Shown one piece after another: positions 9,087 to 64,000 of a DNA stretch of 64,000 nt; positions within the stretch are counted from its first letter, which is position 1; each line of letters opens with the position of its first letter. Source of the stretch: a virus; IMG/VR virus record IMGVR_UViG_3300045241_000115, positions 1 through 64,000 of that record, one strand, 5' to 3'. The translations under genes were made by a program, and so were the position numbers. The notes under the pieces are model-generated. The model was given only the letters and a program-made list of their open reading frames with translations. It did no database searches and was not told the DNA's origin.

Positions 9087-9134
9087 TTGCACGCCACACA
9101 ATTTGTGCGTGGTGCAAACAGAAAGGACGCAACA

Positions 9135-10990: not shown

Positions 10991-11319
10991 CCGAACTTGT
11001 CGACCGGCAGTTCATGCTGTCGGCGATCCTCGCGCGCGATCCCGACGCGACAAGACTCCATCTGCGCCATCTGCAGGTGTTGGAACACGTCTGCTCCGGC
11101 AACGGCGTGCTGACATCGGCAGTGATTGCCGCCGAGCTTGACATCAGCCCGGCGCAAACGTCGCGGCTGCTCGCCAAGCTGGAGAGCCACGAAATGATCA
11201 CGCGCTCCGATCCACGTTATCGCCCGATGACGTGGGGGCCGACGGTGCGCGGCCGCGCGCTGATCATACGCCTGCGCACCTACGTCTCTGCGTGCCTGTC
11301 AACCGACCAAGCCGCCTAA
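10987..11319 (+). CDS. MarR-like winged-helix protein
   Basis: IAAELDISPAQTSRLLAKLE..TVRGRAL. Confidence 0.7.
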   Translation: MTELVDRQFMLSAILARDPDATRLHLRHLQVLEHVCSGNGVLTSAVIAAELDISPAQTSRLLAKLESHEMITRSDPRYRPMTWGPTVRGRALIIRLRTYVSACLSTDQAA

Positions 11320-11335
11320 ACAGAAAGGAACAACC

Positions 11336-12934
11336 ATGAACACGCTGAGTATCGCGCTTGAGAACCTGCGCCCCGATCCCGCCAACGCCCGTCATGTCTG
11401 CGACAACGACGTTTCCAGCCTCGCCGCCTCCATCGACCGCGTCGGCCTGTTGCAGCCCATCGTGGTGCGGCCCGACGGCGACTCCTGGCTCGTCGTCGCC
11501 GGCAACCGTCGCGTACAAGCCTGTCGTACGCTTGGTCGTACGCACATCGACGCCGTGGAATTCGCCGTGGACGAGGACCATGAGGCCGTCGCGGCGTCGG
11601 CTGCGGAAAACATGGTGCGCATGCCCATGCACCCCGTTGACACGTGGCGTGCGATGACCGCGCTGATCGATGGGGGCTACTCCCGCGAGGGTGCCGCCGA
11701 CGCGCTCGGCGTCTCCCACGTCATGGCCCGTCGCCTCGATCATCTGGGCCGCATGGCGCCGCAGCTCGTGGACGCCATCGCCACCCAGGCGGAACTGCCC
11801 CAGGCGTCGATCATGCGCACCATCGCGCTGGCCCCGACCCCGGTGCAGCAAAAGGCCCTGGCGGCCGCGAGCCGGGGCGGCAAGGTCGATTGGTGGCGCG
11901 TCGCCCAGGGCTGCGAGACCACCCGCATTCCGATGACGCGGGCGATCTTCGACACCGAGGCCGCCAGCGTCACCTTCGACGAGGACCTGTTCGCCCAGCC
12001 GGACGATGACGAGCGGTTCACCACGACCGACATCGCAGGCTTCCTCAAGGCGCAATGCGACGCGCTGGACGCCAAGGCTACGGCGTCCAAGGGGCGCATG
12101 ACCGCCTATGTCTGGTCGCGCCCCCTGCGCCTGCGCGACCGCATGCCGAAGGGATGGGCGGCGACTTACGACGACCCGCCGAAGCGGTGGAAGAAGGACG
12201 ATCCGCGTCATCTGTTCGCCAGCGTGATCGGCGAGGGCTACGAGATCGGCGCGGTCGAGTACGTCGTGGCCGCCCCCAAGGTGGACCGCCCGGCTGCTGC
12301 GGCAACGGTCGGGACCGAGACGGTGCGCGAGCGGTCGCCGATCAGCAAGATGACGATAAACCGCCTCGCGATGATGAAGCGCGAGGCCGTCGTGGAGCGT
12401 CTGCCTCTGATCGCGGCGAACGCCAACCCCTCGGACATGCTGCGCGCGCTGTTGCTCGTGCTGACCTTCGAGAATGTCAGCCTGTGGGACAGCGACCGCC
12501 GCTACGGCACCTCGCCCTATCGCGACCTCGCCCGCCATCTGGTCGATCACGAGGGAAAGCCTGTCGATCTGTCCGAGGCGCAGCTTTGCGTCCTAGCCGC
12601 CGATGCGATCGGACGCGTGGTGAAGTTCGAGGGCGCCGACATCGCCAACTCGTCCGGCCCCCAGGCCGAATGGCTGGCGGCGATGGTGGGGGCCGAGATG
12701 CCACGCTGCGACAGCGAGGAAATCCTGAAAGGGCTGACCAAGGACGCGCTGATCGAACTGGCCCGCCAGCACGGCATATCCGAGCAGGGCAAGACCGTCG
12801 AGATCAGGGGGAGGCTGATCGGACATTTGCCCGACTGGCGGCCCGCTGACTTCGGCGCCAAGGGCCCGTCCGGCTACCACTTCGAGCGGGAGCAGGCCGA
12901 CGACGAGTCCGACGATGCGGAGGAGGCTGCGTGA
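11336..12934 (+). CDS. ParB/RepB/Spo0J family protein
   Basis: SLAASIDRVGLLQPIVVR, AGNRR, AENMVR. Confidence 0.85.
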   Translation: MNTLSIALENLRPDPANARHVCDNDVSSLAASIDRVGLLQPIVVRPDGDSWLVVAGNRRVQACRTLGRTHIDAVEFAVDEDHEAVAASAAENMVRMPMHPVDTWRAMTALIDGGYSREGAADALGVSHVMARRLDHLGRMAPQLVDAIATQAELPQASIMRTIALAPTPVQQKALAAASRGGKVDWWRVAQGCETTRIPMTRAIFDTEAASVTFDEDLFAQPDDDERFTTTDIAGFLKAQCDALDAKATASKGRMTAYVWSRPLRLRDRMPKGWAATYDDPPKRWKKDDPRHLFASVIGEGYEIGAVEYVVAAPKVDRPAAAATVGTETVRERSPISKMTINRLAMMKREAVVERLPLIAANANPSDMLRALLLVLTFENVSLWDSDRRYGTSPYRDLARHLVDHEGKPVDLSEAQLCVLAADAIGRVVKFEGADIANSSGPQAEWLAAMVGAEMPRCDSEEILKGLTKDALIELARQHGISEQGKTVEIRGRLIGHLPDWRPADFGAKGPSGYHFEREQADDESDDAEEAA

Positions 12935-49008: not shown

Positions 49009-52000
49009 TCAGACCGTGGTGCAGCGAACGATGTGCTGCTTGCCGACTTTCTCGATTTCGTAGACATCGAATGCGATGCCGTGCCGCAGCAGCACTTCGT
49101 TCTCTGAGACGTAGGATTTGTCTGCCGCCCATATGCCGAGTGCCGGCGTTCCCTTTCGGGCGACGATTTCGTAGATCACGCTCTTGGATGAGAACGCCGC
49201 TTCCTTCGCCATGCTGGTCGAAGTGAAACCGAGGCGCTGTGGCCGCACGATTTTGCCGGCCGCCAGACCGTCCTTCCATTGCTGCAGCATCGCGTCGGGA
49301 ACGTCCTCGCCGCGTCGCAGTATCGCGTCCGCGTGCAGCACCGCGTCGGGATGCTCGAACAGAAGGTCGATGTCATCGACCATTTCCTGGGCGTATGCCG
49401 GCGCCGTGGCGTCGCTGCGCAATGCACCGTTGATGCCGCCGGACCCGCCTTTGTAGGAGACACATGCGGCCTTGCCGGCCTTGCTCACGTCGGGCTTGGT
49501 CCACCACGAACGATCGAGCGAGGGGCAAATAGCTCTGGCCTGCGGAGCGGCGGCGCTGGGGACGTCGTGTGCCTGCTTACGTTTTGCCTGCGCTATCTCG
49601 AGGCGCTTCTGGTTCGGCGTTCGGACCGCGTTGGGGCTGGGTGTGGTCGAGGAGGACGGGGACGCAGATGTGGCCGGACTCACGGTTCCGACCGGCGTAC
49701 CGCTCAGCTTTTGGATCCATTGGTTGGCAAGTGTTTTGACGGAAGGATCGAGCGATGTGTTCGCCAGCGCGGTGATCTTCGCGATCTTCGCTGCGCTGAT
49801 GTTGGAGGGATCGACCGCGATCTTGAAGATTTGGGCATGTAGCGATGCCGCGCTTTGCGGCGGCGGCGTTGAGGCCGCTGGCTGAGGCGTCGGCGTCGCG
49901 GCCGGTTTGGGCGGTACGGACGCGGTCGGTTTCGGCGCCGCCTTGGCCGAAGGCGTGACGCCATGCGCCGCGCCCACATGGGCGATCATCGTGTTGGCGT
50001 ATTTGGCGATCGATCCGTGTTTATAGTTGCTGGCGAGCTGCTGGATCTGCGCGGCCGCCTCGTGCGGGTCGGTGCCTTTTGTCAGCAATTCCTTGGTGAG
50101 CGCGTGCAGCTTCTTGCCGGCCGGCGTCGACCAATAGGCGGGCGGATGAGGCACGGTCTGCGCCGCAGCCGCGACCTTGCTCCCACCACTGCCGCCGCCG
50201 CCCCCACCGCCGCCCGATGTGAACTCGCCACCGCCCGGGCTGCCCTTCGGCACGCGTGGGTGCTCGCCTTCCACGAAGTCGGCGTCGGCGTAATCGATGT
50301 CCTCGCCGTTGTCGTAGTCGATGTCAGCGCCATCGTCGGCCTCGCCTTCGTCCTCGTCCTCGAGGAATTCCAGCGGGTCGAAGCCCAGCATGGCGATGAC
50401 ATCGGCGGGCGTTACCTCGAGCAGCTCGTCGTCGGGATCCTCGTCATCCTCGTCCGGATCCGGCAGCGGAGATCCGACCTCGCCCCAATGGGCGTCGGGA
50501 AGTTCTCTGTCCCCGTCGTCATCGGCCCATGCAGCGTCCGCAGTGCCGCCGATGCCGGCCGATTGCTGCCATTGCGCGAACACGACCGGCGAGATGTAGG
50601 ACTGCAAGGCGATCGTCGGCGTGTTGCCGAGCTTCTGCGAAACGATGGTGGCGACGTGTTTGACCGCGCGCTTGTACTCGCGCTCGTTGGTCGGCTCCGG
50701 CGTTCTCTCCACTTCATCGAGCGCGGTCTGCGTGCCGAGGTGGGTGCGGAAATCCTTGGTCTTGAACGAGCCGTCGCCGAGCGAGTGGACGTGCTTGAGC
50801 AGCCCGCCTGCGTTGACACCGAACAGATCGCCGCGTGCGCCTGCGGCCTCTTTGCGCTTGAGCAGCATCTTGGCGATGCCGGGGTCCTGGATCGGCAGGT
50901 CGAGGGAGACGCCCTTCTTGCCGGTGAAGCGCAGCCGCACGCCGTCCTTCAGCGAGACGACGTGGCGACCTTGGAGTGTGGTGGCGCCGTATGCCTGCGT
51001 CTCAGCCCCGGTATCGCCGGTGCTGCCGGGCCGGATGCCGGTCGCCATGATCAACGCGGTCGCATCAGCCGCCTCGCGGGTCGCAAGCTCGCGCCGCGCC
51101 GCCTCGTTCTGTTTGCGAACGTCCTTGAACGCCTCGGCGAGCTTCTTGGCGCGCGCGAACTTCGCGGCCGCCTGTTTGGCGGAGAATTCCGCCGAATAGA
51201 CCAATTGCCTGCGACCCTTCACGTCGCGTCCGGTCGCCTGCAGTTTGGCCGCGGGATCGGGCGAATAGGTGACGTCGGTCCAGGCGGGCGGGAGCTTGAG
51301 CTTCTGGATGTGCTCAGGCAGGTCGGCGCCCGACGAAGTGACGCGTTTGCCGTTGGCGACCTTCGTCGTCTCGTGATGAGCGGCAGCGCCACCGCCGCCA
51401 CCGCCACCTGACGTGAACTCACCACCGCCAGGACCGCTTTTGACGCGCGGATGCTCGGACTCAACGAAGGCGTCGTAGCTGTATTCGGGTGTGCCGCTGT
51501 CGAGGATCGTGCATCGGCTGCCGCAGCGACCTTCGTCCACCAACGCCACGTGGTTGCAGAAGATGTTGCGCTGTCGGCCGAGGCCAGGAGCCGTCTGCTC
51601 GTAGTGCGCGTTGTACCCCACGCTGATCGCGCGCTTGCCGCGCTTGACCGCATCGATGCCGCGTCGTGTCGTGAAGATCAGATCCGCAAGCAGCAGGTCA
51701 TCGTAGGCGCCCTCACCGCGGCGCGGATTGGACACGTAGCCTATGGCGAGATCGGAATAGTTGTCTGGCCCGACCGCATCGTACGGATGATCGTCCACCA
51801 GCGGTTTGCCAATGAAGCTGCGCACGCTGTCTGGCGAGAACACTTCGGACGCCTCGCGGTCGACGTGCACGCGCCCGCCCTGGTCGCCCTGCAATGGAGG
51901 GACTTCATTTTCCCAGTAAATCTGCGTGCCGGTGCGCGCGATGGGCACGTTGCGGCAGATCAGGTAGCCTTCGGCGGTCTCTTCCTGATTGGCCGAGAGT

Positions 52001-52023
52001 TTGGAGACGGTATGCCATTCCAT
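49009..52023 (-). CDS. Polyprotein: DUF2213 + type IB topoisomerase + ADP-ribosyltransferase
   Basis: GYLICRNVPIARTG..NHVALV..GRCG; PPAW, GIRPG, GKKG, KDFRT, LGNT, SYI; INGALR, RRG, FTSTS, ENEVLL. Confidence 0.9.
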   Translation of the reverse strand: MEWHTVSKLSANQEETAEGYLICRNVPIARTGTQIYWENEVPPLQGDQGGRVHVDREASEVFSPDSVRSFIGKPLVDDHPYDAVGPDNYSDLAIGYVSNPRRGEGAYDDLLLADLIFTTRRGIDAVKRGKRAISVGYNAHYEQTAPGLGRQRNIFCNHVALVDEGRCGSRCTILDSGTPEYSYDAFVESEHPRVKSGPGGGEFTSGGGGGGGAAAHHETTKVANGKRVTSSGADLPEHIQKLKLPPAWTDVTYSPDPAAKLQATGRDVKGRRQLVYSAEFSAKQAAAKFARAKKLAEAFKDVRKQNEAARRELATREAADATALIMATGIRPGSTGDTGAETQAYGATTLQGRHVVSLKDGVRLRFTGKKGVSLDLPIQDPGIAKMLLKRKEAAGARGDLFGVNAGGLLKHVHSLGDGSFKTKDFRTHLGTQTALDEVERTPEPTNEREYKRAVKHVATIVSQKLGNTPTIALQSYISPVVFAQWQQSAGIGGTADAAWADDDGDRELPDAHWGEVGSPLPDPDEDDEDPDDELLEVTPADVIAMLGFDPLEFLEDEDEGEADDGADIDYDNGEDIDYADADFVEGEHPRVPKGSPGGGEFTSGGGGGGGGSGGSKVAAAAQTVPHPPAYWSTPAGKKLHALTKELLTKGTDPHEAAAQIQQLASNYKHGSIAKYANTMIAHVGAAHGVTPSAKAAPKPTASVPPKPAATPTPQPAASTPPPQSAASLHAQIFKIAVDPSNISAAKIAKITALANTSLDPSVKTLANQWIQKLSGTPVGTVSPATSASPSSSTTPSPNAVRTPNQKRLEIAQAKRKQAHDVPSAAAPQARAICPSLDRSWWTKPDVSKAGKAACVSYKGGSGGINGALRSDATAPAYAQEMVDDIDLLFEHPDAVLHADAILRRGEDVPDAMLQQWKDGLAAGKIVRPQRLGFTSTSMAKEAAFSSKSVIYEIVARKGTPALGIWAADKSYVSENEVLLRHGIAFDVYEIEKVGKQHIVRCTTV

Positions 52024-52209
52024 GATGACGGGGCGCCTCCCCTGACCGACGAGGAACGACACAAGCAGCAAAAGTTGCGGCTGTGGGCTATGGAGTTGTC
52101 CTATTCCATGCCGGAATTAGACGACCTGATGCTCGGTCGGCCGCCTCGTCCGCCGCCGTCATTCTGGCAGCGCGTGAAGCGTTGGTTTCGGCGGCTTTAT
52201 CGCGACTGA
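52012..52209 (+). CDS. 65-aa antisense protein containing a major-capsid-like segment
   Basis: GGAG RBS; LRLWAMELSYSMPEL vs capsid LRLWAQELSYTMPEL; C-terminal FWQRVKRWFRRL. Confidence 0.65.
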   Translation: MPFHDDGAPPLTDEERHKQQKLRLWAMELSYSMPELDDLMLGRPPRPPPSFWQRVKRWFRRLYRD

Positions 52210-60059: not shown

Positions 60060-60702
60060 GCGGTGGCCTCATGGCGTGAGGATGCGACAAAAGACTGTTT
60101 CGCTAGTTGAAACAGTTGCGACAATAACTGGCCGAATATTGCTGCGGGTGCCGTCTGATCGTGTCGGAAGCCATTGATCTGACAAGGAAATAATACAGAT
60201 TGTTCCGTTGCGGCAATCTGCGACTATCGCATTGCTATCGATGATCTTTGACAAATGAATACGGATCGCACGCCGCCCCACACGGGGCGCGGGGGTCGCT
60301 CGGGGGCCAAGCGCACGTTGCGCGGGGTCGAACCCATCCACGAGCCGCTTACGCGATGTGCACGTCTACCGCGATCCGATGATCTGTTCCTGATCATTTC
60401 CCGTCTTTGACAAATAAATCCGCCACCCTGAGCACGAAACGACATCCGTGGTCGCGCAGCCTATCGGCGCAATCGGATGCACGTCATGCGAGGGGAGCGG
60501 GTTTCATAGGCAACCCAATTCACCGCATTCCCGCGCTTCGGCGCTGCCTGTAAGGCGATGCGGGGTGATGTTCGTGGATGTTTAGTTGCATCTCGGTGCA
60601 ACCCTCTGCCCGTGGCTATCGGGGTGAGGGCGGTTACCTGCCTGCAAGGCGTGCGACGAAAGCTGACGCGAACAGCACCGGAGTGGTTTGGTGTGTTCTT
60701 TT

Positions 60703-60812
60703 CTTTCTGTTGATTGGCATCGTGTGAAGGCTACGGCCTTTGCGCGATGCCGGTCCGGGATGTGAGCCATCCCGCTGAACGAGGCCATGAGGCCGAAACC
60801 CAACAGAAAGGA
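60703..60812 (+). ncRNA. Type III hammerhead ribozyme (variant core CUGAACGA)
   Basis: GUC at 60753-55; stem I CGGGAUG/CAUCCCG; stem II GGCC/GGCC; GAAA; stem III extended by 60703-12 pairing with 60801-10. Confidence 0.75.
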
Positions 60813-60819
60813 ACATCAT

Positions 60820-61083
60820 ATGACAATGGATCAATTTGTTCTCGGCGCGCGCGTGCGTCTCGTTCGCCGCGCCGGCGGAAACTACCCGGGTGCGAGTTTC
60901 TGCATCGAACCCGGCCCGATCGGCACGGTGATCAAATCGCCCGAGGATTTCTGCGTGGACGAGTTCGCCCCGAATGTCGGGGTGCGGTTTGATGACCGCG
61001 TTGCCGATCTCGATATGTGGGACAACATCGTGATCGTGGGCGACGACTTCGACGCCACGGCCGATCATTTCGAGACACTCTGA
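60820..61083 (+). CDS. Hypothetical early protein
   Basis: AGAAAGGAAC RBS; lies between ribozymes. Confidence 0.7.
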   Translation: MTMDQFVLGARVRLVRRAGGNYPGASFCIEPGPIGTVIKSPEDFCVDEFAPNVGVRFDDRVADLDMWDNIVIVGDDFDATADHFETL

Positions 61084-61152
61084 GACGAAACACGGCGCGT
61101 TGCGTCGTGTCCGTCGGCGCCTGCCCCTCCCGACGCTGATGAGTCAGGGGCA
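61084..61152 (+). ncRNA. Type II hammerhead ribozyme with pseudoknot
   Basis: GAC-GAAA-stem III-GUC(61111)-CGUCGG/CCGACG-CUGAUGA-GUC; loop UGCCCCU pairs with AGGGGCA. Confidence 0.92.
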
Positions 61153-61171
61153 AACAGAAAGGAACAACCCT

Positions 61172-61342
61172 ATGCGCAAGCAAATCGAGACGATGAAGAC
61201 GAAGCTGCAGACGATGCTCGCCCGCGCCGAAGAGAAGGCCGACAGCGAGAACGAGACGGTCGGCGACAAGTACGCCGCCGTCATGGACGGTCTGCAAACC
61301 GCGCTCGACGGCCTGGACGAAGCGTTGCTCGCATTTGAATGA
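61172..61342 (+). CDS. Small acidic helical early protein
   Basis: Conserved RBS; stop codon overlaps the next ribozyme. Confidence 0.7.
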   Translation: MRKQIETMKTKLQTMLARAEEKADSENETVGDKYAAVMDGLQTALDGLDEALLAFE

Positions 61343-61415
61343 CGAAACGCGCGGTGGATGAGACATCGCGCGTCTGCATGGAACCCCGCCCATCCTGCAC
61401 TGATGAGTCAGGGCG
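61340..61415 (+). ncRNA. Type II hammerhead ribozyme with pseudoknot
   Basis: UGAC-GAAA-CGCGCGGUG/CAUCGCGCG-UC(61374)-UGCA..UGCA-CUGAUGA-GUCA; CGCCC pairs with GGGCG. Confidence 0.92.
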
Positions 61416-61434
61416 AACAGAAAGGAACATCACA

Positions 61435-61737
61435 ATGCCAAAGACCACAATCATGCTCAAGGCCGACGTTGCGCAGCGCAAGGCGCGTCATACGTGCCCC
61501 CAGTACGATCAATTCAAGAAGCCATCGCGCAAGGCGTCCAGAGCGAAGATTGATCCGACGACAACCGCCGAGGCGGATCAGGCGATCTACGAGGCCGCAC
61601 TGAGTCAGGTACGCGAGGCGATGCGCCGCTTCGCCGGCCCGCATGCGTCCAAACGCCAGCTCAAAGAGATCGACGCGGCGCTGAGCGAGGCATTCGGGCA
61701 ACTCGACGCCATCGCGTACGATCTTGTTTGCATGTGA
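61435..61737 (+). CDS. Hypothetical early protein
   Basis: Conserved RBS; stop codon overlaps the next ribozyme. Confidence 0.7.
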   Translation: MPKTTIMLKADVAQRKARHTCPQYDQFKKPSRKASRAKIDPTTTAEADQAIYEAALSQVREAMRRFAGPHASKRQLKEIDAALSEAFGQLDAIAYDLVCM

Positions 61738-61806
61738 CGAAACGCGGCGCGCGCAGCGCTGCGTCTGCACGGACCTGCCCCACCCTGCACTGATGAGTCA
61801 GGGGCA
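61735..61806 (+). ncRNA. Type II hammerhead ribozyme with pseudoknot
   Basis: UGAC-GAAA-CGCGGCGC/GCGCUGCG-UC(61765)-UGCA..UGCA-CUGAUGA-GUCA; UGCCCC pairs with GGGGCA. Confidence 0.92.
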
Positions 61807-61823
61807 ACAGAAAGGAACAACCC

Positions 61824-62018
61824 ATGCCTAAGTTTCGTATCTCATACGAGATCGAATGCGAGGCCGCCAACGCTGCCGAAGCGTTGGAGGGCTTTTTGTC
61901 GTCCGGCCACGTTCACGAGGAAGAGTGGACGGTGACGCGGGTTCATCCGCGGCCATCGTCTGTCATCGTGACGGCGCGCAACCCGCGCAAAATACGGCGT
62001 GACGGAGCGACGCGATGA
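61824..62018 (+). CDS. Hypothetical early protein
   Basis: Conserved RBS. Confidence 0.7.
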   Translation: MPKFRISYEIECEAANAAEALEGFLSSGHVHEEEWTVTRVHPRPSSVIVTARNPRKIRRDGATR

Positions 62019-62542
62019 GCGACAGCACTTCCCAGCTTGTCGCTGTTCTCGGCATGTTGGGATCGCAGTTCGACGGCGAGTGCCTGAACGCGGCCCGGAT
62101 GGCCGAGAAAATGCGACGCAAGATGGACAAGACGTGGCAGCAATTGCTGACCGCCGGCGCGTCGTCTCCCAAGGACGAGCTCGGCTGGCTCGCACGCGCG
62201 TTGCGTGCCGAGAAAATGGTCAGCGATCTGACGGCGCGTATCGGCAAAATGGAGGCCGAACTTGCCGAATTGCGCAAGGCTCGTCCGAGCGCGTCCGCGT
62301 CCTCGACCGGCCCACGTCCTCGCAGTCCCGGCTACAAGTACTCACTCAGCGCCGAGACCGAGCAGATCTTGATCGACAAGATGTTGCTGATCGAACGATC
62401 GACCAACGAGATCTATTACATCACCAAATGGCCGCGCGCGCATTTGCGCGTCGTCCTCGAGCGCATCGCCCATCGCCGCAAACTCGAGCTTCATGTGCGG
62501 CGACGGTTCGGCAGCACGTTCTATCGTTTCACGCGTGTCTAA
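62015..62542 (+). CDS. Hypothetical protein
   Basis: LGMLGSQFDGE..NAAR motif; coiled coil. Confidence 0.7.
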   Translation: MSDSTSQLVAVLGMLGSQFDGECLNAARMAEKMRRKMDKTWQQLLTAGASSPKDELGWLARALRAEKMVSDLTARIGKMEAELAELRKARPSASASSTGPRPRSPGYKYSLSAETEQILIDKMLLIERSTNEIYYITKWPRAHLRVVLERIAHRRKLELHVRRRFGSTFYRFTRV

Positions 62543-62588
62543 CCCGTACGGATGCAGCATCGTTCGATGCTGTATTCGCCTGGGTTAG
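62539..62588 (+). other. Conserved intergenic hairpin, copy 1
   Basis: CUAACCC-GUAC-GGAUGCAGCAUC-loop-GAUGCUGUAUUC-GCCU-GGGUUAG. Confidence 0.65.
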
Positions 62589-63046: not shown

Positions 63047-63096
63047 CTGACCCGTACGGATGCAGCATCAAACGATGCTGCATTCGCCTGGGCCAG
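63047..63096 (+). other. Conserved intergenic hairpin, copy 2
   Basis: CUGACCC-GUAC-GGAUGCAGCAUC-loop-GAUGCUGCAUUC-GCCU-GGGCCAG. Confidence 0.65.
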
Positions 63097-63130: not shown

Positions 63131-64000
63131 ATGGCGAGAGAGTTTCTCACGTTGAAGCAATTGCGCGAGAGGACCTGGAAGAACCAAGACGAGGCTATTC
63201 TGGATCTGAAACGCGCGGGGCTGAAGCCGGTCGGCACCGACTATGTGCTGGGCGAGCATACGCCCGGCAGCAAGGTCTGGCAGTTGCTGGACCGCACGGA
63301 CGCCGATGGTTCGCAAGAGCCGCCGACGGCCAAGCCGGCGAAGGCCGCGAAGGCTCCCAAGAAGACGGCCAAGTCCGAACATCCGGGTGACGCCGACATG
63401 AAAGCCAAGGCCGCGAAGGCGACCGGCTATGACGTTCACTTCCGAGTCAGTCCGACCAAGAAGTTGAACGAGCAGGCCGACACGTTGGAGGCGGCCCGTG
63501 CGATCGCCGCGCGCATGAATGCCGAACACGGCAAGAATGGGCGACGTGCGATGATCTACGCGCGACAGGCGAAGGGTCCGTCCATCCCGATCACAGGCGA
63601 CGATCCGCCTGTGACGAAGGTGGCGGAGAAGGTGAAGGGCGCGAAGGCGAAGCCCGCCGATGCGCCGGAGCCGGAGCCTGCGCCGGAGCCTGCGAAGCCT
63701 GCCGAGCCGGCCAACGACATGACGCCGTTGCCGGCGGCCAACGGGCCGTACAACTTCCGTCTCGATCAGCCGCCGGCGCAGCATTCGCTGTTGCCGACGG
63801 CGCTCGAATGGTCGCGCAAGACCGGCTTCGTCGTGGCGATCATCGACAAGGCCGGCAACGTCGTGCGCAAGATCGACGGCCGGCTGGGCGGCAAACGTCC
63901 TACGCGCACGGCGACGCGCGTGGCAACGCGCACCCCCCGCGCACCGCAGGGCGAGGGCAAGATGGCCACCGCCACGCGGCTGCTGATGCGTCCCGAGGGC
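63131..64000 (+). CDS. Lys/Ala/Pro-rich protein; runs off the right edge
   Basis: Manual translation MAREFLTLKQ..; ends KMATATRLLMRPEG (DUF3489-like start); conserved RBS. Confidence 0.7.
   Translation, partial: MAREFLTLKQLRERTWKNQDEAILDLKRAGLKPVGTDYVLGEHTPGSKVWQLLDRTDADGSQEPPTAKPAKAAKAPKKTAKSEHPGDADMKAKAAKATGYDVHFRVSPTKKLNEQADTLEAARAIAARMNAEHGKNGRRAMIYARQAKGPSIPITGDDPPVTKVAEKVKGAKAKPADAPEPEPAPEPAKPAEPANDMTPLPAANGPYNFRLDQPPAQHSLLPTALEWSRKTGFVVAIIDKAGNVVRKIDGRLGGKRPTRTATRVATRTPRAPQGEGKMATATRLLMRPEG

Follow-up and report, generated by a model that had tools for sequence, protein, structure and literature searches.

The genome of an uncultured soil phage, IMG/VR record IMGVR_UViG_3300045241_000115 (73,959 bp, 63.4% GC, CheckV completeness 100%), was analysed over its first 64 kb (positions 1-64,000), which we refer to as the window. 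Towards the end of the window, a series of small genes lies on the plus strand, and the three consecutive spacers between the first four of them (A/B, B/C and C/D) are each filled by a complete, canonical type II hammerhead ribozyme with a predicted cleavage site. To judge from the anatomy of these elements, the hammerheads probably cut one long phage message co-transcriptionally into single-gene mRNAs.

Three type II hammerheads in consecutive spacers

The three elements are as follows.

61084-61152, plus strand: hammerhead 1, type II, from the 5' strand of stem II to the pseudoknot tail; predicted cut after 61111; RF02276 score 27.1 bits
61340-61415, plus strand: hammerhead 2, type II; predicted cut after 61374; RF02276 score 25.0 bits
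61735-61806, plus strand: hammerhead 3, type II; predicted cut after 61765; RF02276 score 27.6 bits

Explicit pairing places C17 of the three copies at 61111, 61374 and 61765, in agreement with the original prediction, which had described three consecutive spacers as complete type II hammerheads cut after these nucleotides. The core of a type II hammerhead requires C3 U4 G5 A6 N7 G8 A9, G12 A13 A14, an A15.1-U16.1 pair and H17 (Rfam RF02276; Perreault et al. 2011, PMC3088659), and it is complete in all three copies, which exhibit CUGAUGA, GAAA, and GUC with C17. The pairs adjacent to the core are standard, with G-C at 10.1-11.1 and A-U at 15.1-16.1 in each copy, while at 1.1-2.1 copy 1 has C-G and the other two copies have U-A. 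Stem III comprises 9, 10 and 9 bp in copies 1 to 3, stem I comprises 6, 4+2 and 4+2 bp, and the open stem II comprises 3, 4 and 4 bp. The pseudoknot expected of type II elements, in which loop I forms at least 4 bp with the bases directly 3' of stem II, is also present in each copy. The tail begins directly 3' of stem II in every case, and the pairings are UGCCCCU:AGGGGCA (7 bp), CGCCC:GGGCG (5 bp) and UGCCCC:GGGGCA (6 bp), all of them Watson-Crick.

Between the copies, four positions of stem III and three positions of stem I are changed on both sides. These compensatory changes support the claim that stems I and III vary in sequence and stay paired, but for stem I the covariation is limited to copy 1 versus copies 2 and 3, stem I being nearly identical in the latter two. 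The pseudoknots had been said to covary, and their pairings are exactly as predicted, with two compensatory swaps in copy 2 relative to copies 1 and 3.

The elements are highly specific to this locus. The window contains three matches to the pattern CGAAAC..GTC..CTGATGAG, always on the plus strand (61086-61143, 61343-61407 and 61738-61797), against 0.02 expected from shuffles, and there is no further match anywhere in the 73,959-bp genome. A pairing-aware scan of the genome, in which all three helices were required, returned these three type II elements, a single type III element and nothing else, and such a scan yielded no credible element in 589 kb of loci from other phages and prophages. 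Chance motifs are ruled out by the count of three against 0.02 expected and by the empty 589-kb control scan. Degenerate, non-functional copies are ruled out by the intact cores and the compensated stems.

Proposed processing of the operon RNA

The genes separated by the hammerheads, with gene E, are listed below, with their open reading frames (ORFs), ribosome-binding sites (RBSs) and GC content at third codon positions (GC3) where relevant.

60820-61083, plus strand: gene A, 87 amino acids; ORF with RBS; GC3 0.74; no known family
61172-61342, plus strand: gene B, 56 amino acids; no known family; UGA stop at 61340-61342 within stem II of hammerhead 2
61435-61737, plus strand: gene C, 100 amino acids; no known family; UGA stop at 61735-61737 within stem II of hammerhead 3
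61824-62018, plus strand: gene D, 64 amino acids; overlaps gene E by ATGA
62015-62542, plus strand: gene E, 175 amino acids; forms the next processing unit together with gene D

Genes A to D lie on one strand, and no promoter-like or intergenic terminator-like site is found among them, which supports a single transcription unit. Five terminator-like matches are present between 59.9 and 64 kb, which is no excess over shuffles, and none of them is located in the spacers between A and D.

On such a transcript, each element would fold and cut itself as RNA polymerase completes it, the pairing of loop I with the tail locking stems I and II next to each other. The products would be separate RNAs for genes A, B and C (356, 263 and 391 nt, respectively) and, after them, a message comprising genes D and E. 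With the type II permutation, stem III would stay entirely with the upstream RNA, and stem I and the pseudoknot entirely with the downstream RNA. The upstream mRNA would end in a GC-rich hairpin of 9-10 bp, one base from the 2',3'-cyclic phosphate; in folding, the stem III hairpins at these predicted 3' ends reach -13.5 to -17.9 kcal/mol. The downstream mRNA would start with a 5'-OH and a compact hairpin plus pseudoknot, with an unpaired Shine-Dalgarno sequence about 8 nt further on, and the leader is indeed unpaired in the predicted folds of all three spacers. As the products are joined only by the 3-4 bp of stem II, quick separation is expected. In bacterial mRNA decay, such ends would be expected to slow 3' exonucleases and the 5'-end-dependent RNase E. 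The likely benefit would be that the stability and translation of neighbouring genes are uncoupled without a host nuclease. The protein-free cutting of a polycistronic RNA into gene-sized mRNAs, as originally proposed, is thus a reading that the anatomy of the elements and published precedent both favour.

The ends left by a hammerhead, 5'-OH and 2',3'-cyclic phosphate, are also suited to ligation, for instance by RtcB. The 263-nt and 391-nt fragments might be closed into circular RNAs by RtcB or by the ribozyme itself, with a chimeric hammerhead rebuilt from neighbouring halves. Stem II and the core are common to the three copies, and any 5' half fits any 3' half. Nevertheless, nothing in the sequence specifically brings two ends together, and spliced or circular products were sought from such arrays and none was found (Perreault et al. 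2011). We regard circle formation as extremely improbable.

A variant type III hammerhead in the leader of gene A

The type III element retrieved by the genome scan precedes gene A.

60752-60800, plus strand: leader hammerhead, type III variant; RF00008 score 24.1 bits, and pairing-aware scan; predicted cut after 60755

The predicted cut lies 64 nt ahead of the start of gene A. The core comprises 8 nt, CUGAACGA (CUGA-A-C-GA), in which one base is inserted after A6, and departs from the canonical 7-nt CUGANGA; by its sequence, the element is classed as a type III variant and not as a canonical member. A related phage (L142, large terminase 71% identical) exhibits an 8-nt core, CUGAAUGA (CUGA-A-U-GA), at the same leader position. 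In the comparison of these two sequences, 5 of 15 pairs differ at both bases and no pair differs at only one, and 96.7% of the cells pair, against 30-50% in slid controls. All three helices of the leader element are present with covariation relative to L142. A pattern search for the type III variant returned no contig beyond that of L142.

An insertion after A6 ('A6a') has been described as a natural variant with low activity (Fig. 5 in Perreault et al. 2011, PMC3088659). The leader element and its L142 counterpart both share with A6a the extra base after A6. Here, the insertion is kept in two phages, the stems are fully compensated, and stem III seemingly extends into a helix covering the RBS.

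The 141-nt region around the leader element (window 60690-60830) has an unusually stable predicted fold (-69 kcal/mol, z = -7.2), in which 60701-60712 pairs with the RBS of gene A at 60801-60812. A cut after 60755 would convert this clamp on the RBS into a two-piece duplex, and could serve as a switch for the translation of gene A.

The slot between the stop codon and the ribosome-binding site

The UGA stop of the upstream gene abuts stem II in copy 1 (61081-61083) and provides the first three of the four stem II bases in copy 2 (61340-61342) and in copy 3 (61735-61737). On the other side, the leader AACAGAAAGGAAC begins 0-1 nt past each hammerhead tail. It had been predicted that the stop forms or abuts stem II and that the tail abuts the next RBS, and both the stop coordinates and the gap between tail and leader agree with this. 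The leader copies of genes A to D are the following.

60802-60814, plus strand: leader/RBS motif AACAGAAAGGAAC of gene A
61153-61165, plus strand: leader/RBS motif of gene B
61416-61428, plus strand: leader/RBS motif of gene C
61806-61818, plus strand: leader/RBS motif of gene D

The leader motif (ACAGAARGGA) is present in 15 plus-strand copies between 60.8 and 69.8 kb, each located 5-8 nt upstream of an ATG. Over this region, the genome exhibits 15 units composed of a stop codon, a structured RNA, the leader and an ATG, with hammerheads in units 1-4 and hairpins in units 5-15. The 11 hairpins are about 50 nt long, with about 20 bp interrupted by an internal loop. Two of them are located in the window.

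62540-62587, plus strand: hairpin family, copy 1; starts at the stop codon (UAA) of gene E, in the slot that the hammerheads occupy further upstream
63047-63096, plus strand: hairpin family, copy 2; upstream of the gene starting at 63131

The other copies are found at 4129-9790 of L124 (genome 64129-69790). In most copies, the stop codon of the upstream gene forms part of the basal stem, whose 3' strand covaries according to whether the stop is UGA or UAA. We considered whether the hairpins belong to a known ribozyme class and rejected this, as the family has no Rfam match and the internal loop is not kept across all 11 copies. Because the internal loop is not conserved throughout, the hairpins seem more likely to be a protein-recognised site of double-stranded RNA, RNase III-like, than a ribozyme.

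Two observations concern the sequences bordering the slot. The G-rich tail that pairs with loop I in the hammerheads (CAGGGGCA, CAGGGCG; genome 61146-61152, 61411-61415 and 61801-61806) has a similar counterpart immediately ahead of the leader in most hairpin units (63114-69814), as CCAGGGGCGCA, CCAGGGCA or GCUGGGCA. There is no loop I in these units, and the tail may pair there with CCUGG of the hairpin 3' strand. The leader AACAGAAAGGAAC also precedes genes beyond the operon, at 11319-11331 (ahead of a 532-amino-acid ORF starting at 11336) and at 9117-9129 of the window, and at 71257 of the genome on the minus strand. As it is found at genes outside the punctuated operon, it is a genome-wide strong signal for translation start that is not tied to ribozymes.

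Since plain hairpins fill the same slot in 11 other units, the hammerhead folds might serve as mere intercistronic stabilisers or translation insulators, with self-cutting too slow in vivo to matter. The Rfam scores below the cut-off and the insertion in the leader variant, which is reported to reduce activity, point in the same direction. However, every catalytic nucleotide is kept in all three type II elements, together with the pseudoknot needed for fast cleavage (Perreault et al. 2011), a hairpin would be cheaper if structure alone sufficed, and comparable type II elements cleave in vivo. A purely structural role is therefore considered very unlikely.

Related phages

A related large terminase, with up to 83% identity, is encoded in 80 IMG/VR loci. 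Among five related records (three complete genomes and two partial ones, large terminase 71-81% identical), no credible type II hammerhead was found. A search of these records with RF02276 gave only one match, in G004, and this lies below the threshold (11.4 bits, E 0.48) and was regarded as noise. Other ribozymes are nevertheless found between the genes of the syntenic operon, in relatives whose large terminases are 75-78% identical.

L130 1697-1764, minus strand, the same as L207 2700-2767, plus strand: twister-P5
L140 1979-2033, minus strand: type III hammerhead
L208 15221-15284, minus strand: weak match to twister-P1

The twister-P5 scores 40.9 bits, above its cut-off, and lies 4 nt past a stop codon and 37 nt ahead of the next start. 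The operon in which it is located also encodes a homologue of gene E (36% identical in L130). In another relative, the type III hammerhead, likewise placed between a stop codon and the following RBS, scores 41.5 bits, with CCGAUGA in its aligned core versus CUGAUGA in the consensus, and the twister-P1 match is weak (32 bits). In the closest relative, L125, a hairpin and a leader are found at the place of the leader hammerhead described here. From these sequences, the slot persists while the element within it changes between relatives. Together with the ribozymes and hairpins of the present operon, the twister and type III elements in the syntenic operon constitute a natural swap experiment, which suggests that selection acts on intercistronic RNA punctuation rather than on any single element.

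With regard to gene content, genes A to D have no homologue in any relative compared, and a peptide-pattern search for gene E returned no viral relative. The pattern comprising the hammerhead tail plus the leader was found in no IMG/VR contig. The ribozyme and leader repeats might act chiefly as stretches of homology for shuffling small early genes, as cassette boundaries, with RNA cleavage being secondary. Long stretches are identical between copies 2 and 3, from stem I up to and including the leader, 15 leader copies lie within one operon, and both the gene content and the class of slot element vary among relatives while slot elements persist. Recombination, however, needs no intact core, compensated stems or covarying pseudoknot, all of which indicate selection on the RNA fold, and gene exchange is in any case compatible with RNA processing. 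As the chief role of the repeats, gene exchange is rather improbable.

The nearest prophage terminases belong to Alphaproteobacteria (among them Devosia, Phyllobacterium and Neorhizobium). They give a weak hint of an alphaproteobacterial host, against which stands their identity of only 55-59%.

Stop codons next to type II hammerheads in other phages

Type II hammerheads were surveyed in IMG/VR by two scans, one with GAC/GUC as stem II and one with GC/GC, each of which retrieved at least 120 loci (more than 240 matching loci in both scans together). A hammerhead was counted as stop-adjacent when an ORF of at least 60 codons ended within 10 nt 5' of GAAA. Among the matches listed, this applies to 97 of 145 elements in the GAC/GUC set (67%) and to 83 of 156 in the GC/GC set (53%), against 3.4-3.8% for random positions in the same loci (p < 1e-40, counting one per contig). 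In most cases, 10-40 nt separate stem II from the next start codon that has a Shine-Dalgarno-like motif. The module of stop codon, ribozyme and RBS put forward in the original prediction is thus real and general, with 53-67% stop adjacency against 3-4% at random, and this packing is a common but not universal design.

These figures provide a quantitative rule: for roughly 50% to 67% of the type II hammerheads in phages, no more than 10 nt separate a stop codon from GAAA, and the next start follows about 10-40 nt past stem II. This spacing rule was not found in the searchable literature. Likewise, no publication was found that relates the position of hammerheads in phage genomes to stop codons, although coverage was incomplete and this is no proof of novelty.

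In loci with several hammerheads, the elements lie on the same strand (none on opposite strands in the first set), with 270-3387 nt between neighbours. The arrays among the matches listed comprise 11 copies in L324, five each in L272 and L284, and four in L032. In L324 (IMGVR_UViG_3300017605_000570), the 11 type II hammerheads are located on the minus strand within about 4 kb; the stop touches or overlaps the first base of stem II in 10 of the 11, and an RBS follows the tail in all 11.

Such tight packing raises the question of whether cleavage is gated by translation. A terminating ribosome would melt or cover the 5' half of the ribozyme, and the cut, or the release of the products, would depend on translation of the upstream gene. 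The placement of the stop is suggestive: in copies 2 and 3, all but one of the four stem II bases belong to it, and in copy 1 it lies directly against stem II. The adjacency is also general (97/145 and 83/156 versus 3.4-3.8% at random, among the matches listed), the same zero spacing recurs in the 11-copy array, and most of the 11 hairpins of the operon hold the stop in a basal stem whose 3' strand covaries with UGA or UAA. Simple genome compaction, on the other hand, predicts the adjacency equally well, and the adjacency is optional, 33-47% of phage hammerheads being without it. Moreover, cleavage is irreversible and one ribosome-free interval suffices, so that gating would at most cause a delay. 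Gating of this kind seems unlikely. A broader form, in which the stop in stem II would be a functional device across phages, is doubtful as well. In that case, the terminating ribosome would open the hammerhead or hairpin and time the cut or the parting of the products, and the slot would be interchangeable between a hammerhead, a twister and a nuclease-recognised hairpin.

Points against co-transcriptional processing

Several results weigh against the preferred reading, namely that the hammerheads cut the operon message into single-gene mRNAs. Rfam at its gathering thresholds returned nothing in the window: the three type II elements score 25.0-27.6 bits against a gathering score of 37 for RF02276, and the leader element scores 24.1 bits against 48.5 for RF00008. 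The alignment to RF02276 is full-length (1-66 of 66) in all three copies, but every score falls below 37 bits. The match to copy 1 appeared only with a 111-nt search window, and its earlier absence was an effect of the speed filter, as this window recovered it. The RF02276 model reads G10.1 as an insertion, and stem III exceeds the consensus length. We attribute the low scores to membership of a subfamily that this model rates poorly rather than to a defect or a lacking feature.

The leader element may cut slowly, because the A6 insertion gave low activity in the published test. As none of the five relatives has a credible type II hammerhead, the array is not a conserved feature of the lineage, and the phage may be able to dispense with its function or to replace it. 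With regard to the transcript, a sigma-70 promoter scan of 59.9-64 kb found none, so that 'one early transcript' is a deduction, and 'early' derives from gene order and orientation. Only two soil DNA sequencing runs, one of them probably from the source sample, contain the stretch, with no RNA run among them. Finally, a benefit to mRNA stability or translation has been shown for no phage hammerhead, and a 2019 review lists the purpose of such hammerheads as open (PMC6765202).

Other features of the genome

The identification as a phage is based on the IMG/VR record and on the large terminase, portal and major head proteins found in the window. The packaging and head genes, which also include a head maturation protease, are located on the minus strand, at about 37.7-60.06 kb, and a 760-bp divergent spacer separates the head genes from the small-gene operon on the plus strand, which diverges from them. 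The GC3 of the small genes is 0.69-0.86, and the codon-position GC pattern of real genes holds for genes A to G. Pfam and PHROG searches gave nothing significant for genes A to G or for the two upstream minus-strand ORFs. No DNA match to this phage was found in 50,697 GenBank phage records.

The divergent spacer contains two exact copies of TCTTTGACAAAT, at 60245-60256 and 60404-60415 of the window, 159 bp apart (0.07 expected), which may be an operator or the -35 elements of the divergent operons. On the minus strand, at 49009-52071 of the window, a head-associated protein of 1020 amino acids is encoded, whose N-terminus matches head maturation protease families. The C-terminal 70 residues of this protein match the PHROG 'ADP-ribosyltransferase exoenzyme toxin' (E = 4.5e-07).

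Comparison with known systems

In the early operon of phage T7, RNase III cuts the polycistronic early RNA between cistrons, and a 3' hairpin stays on the upstream product. The ends produced by RNase III are 5'-phosphate and 3'-OH, whereas the hammerheads would act without protein and leave 5'-OH and cyclic-phosphate ends. The likeness is a functional analogy only and implies no family membership. The comparison with T7, which was part of the original prediction, gains contextual support from the next 11 spacers, where interrupted hairpins of about 50 nt and about 20 bp fill the same stop-to-RBS slot.

The 11-, five- and four-copy arrays of L324, L272, L284 and L032 resemble the present one in the packing of stop, ribozyme and RBS, in the use of a single strand and in the gene-sized spacing. 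They differ in stem II, which is GC there and GAC/GUC here, they belong to unrelated phages, and they are more extensive.

By cyPhyRNA-seq, in vivo cleavage has been shown for three type II hammerheads of Desulfovibrio vulgaris, which are located close to phage-like genes (PMC8782182). The 5' fragment from start to cut is about 30 nt there, and here the distance from the stop codon to C17 is 31-35 nt. The D. vulgaris elements are found at three separate loci, in contrast to the consecutive spacers of the phage.

The closest precedent is provided by Perreault et al. 2011 (PMC3088659), who described natural type II hammerheads with a pseudoknot between loop I and the 3' tail that is required for fast cleavage. 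Their clusters flank single genes or short gene blocks in prophages of Clostridium scindens, Azorhizobium caulinodans and Agrobacterium tumefaciens. Three tandem arrays cleaved in vitro and one in E. coli, and the proposed role was the cutting of long phage RNA into gene-length mRNAs; stop codons, ribosomes and translation are not mentioned. The present locus likewise has at least two hammerheads on one strand flanking genes of a phage genome, namely four plus-strand elements around A, B and C. It shares with these clusters the type II topology and pseudoknot, the same-strand copies around single small genes, the phage context, the mix of hammerhead types within one cluster and the proposed role; the host is probably also an alphaproteobacterium, on weak evidence. 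It differs in being a free soil phage genome known from sequence alone, not a characterised prophage, and in that the array sits within a 15-unit series composed mostly of non-ribozyme hairpins. The operon combines four ribozymes, belonging to two topologies, with eleven hairpins in one type of slot, and thereby offers a test bed for the role of bacterial and phage hammerheads. The arrangement and its reading have been known since 2011 and are common, and the operon described here is a clean further example of them rather than a new system.

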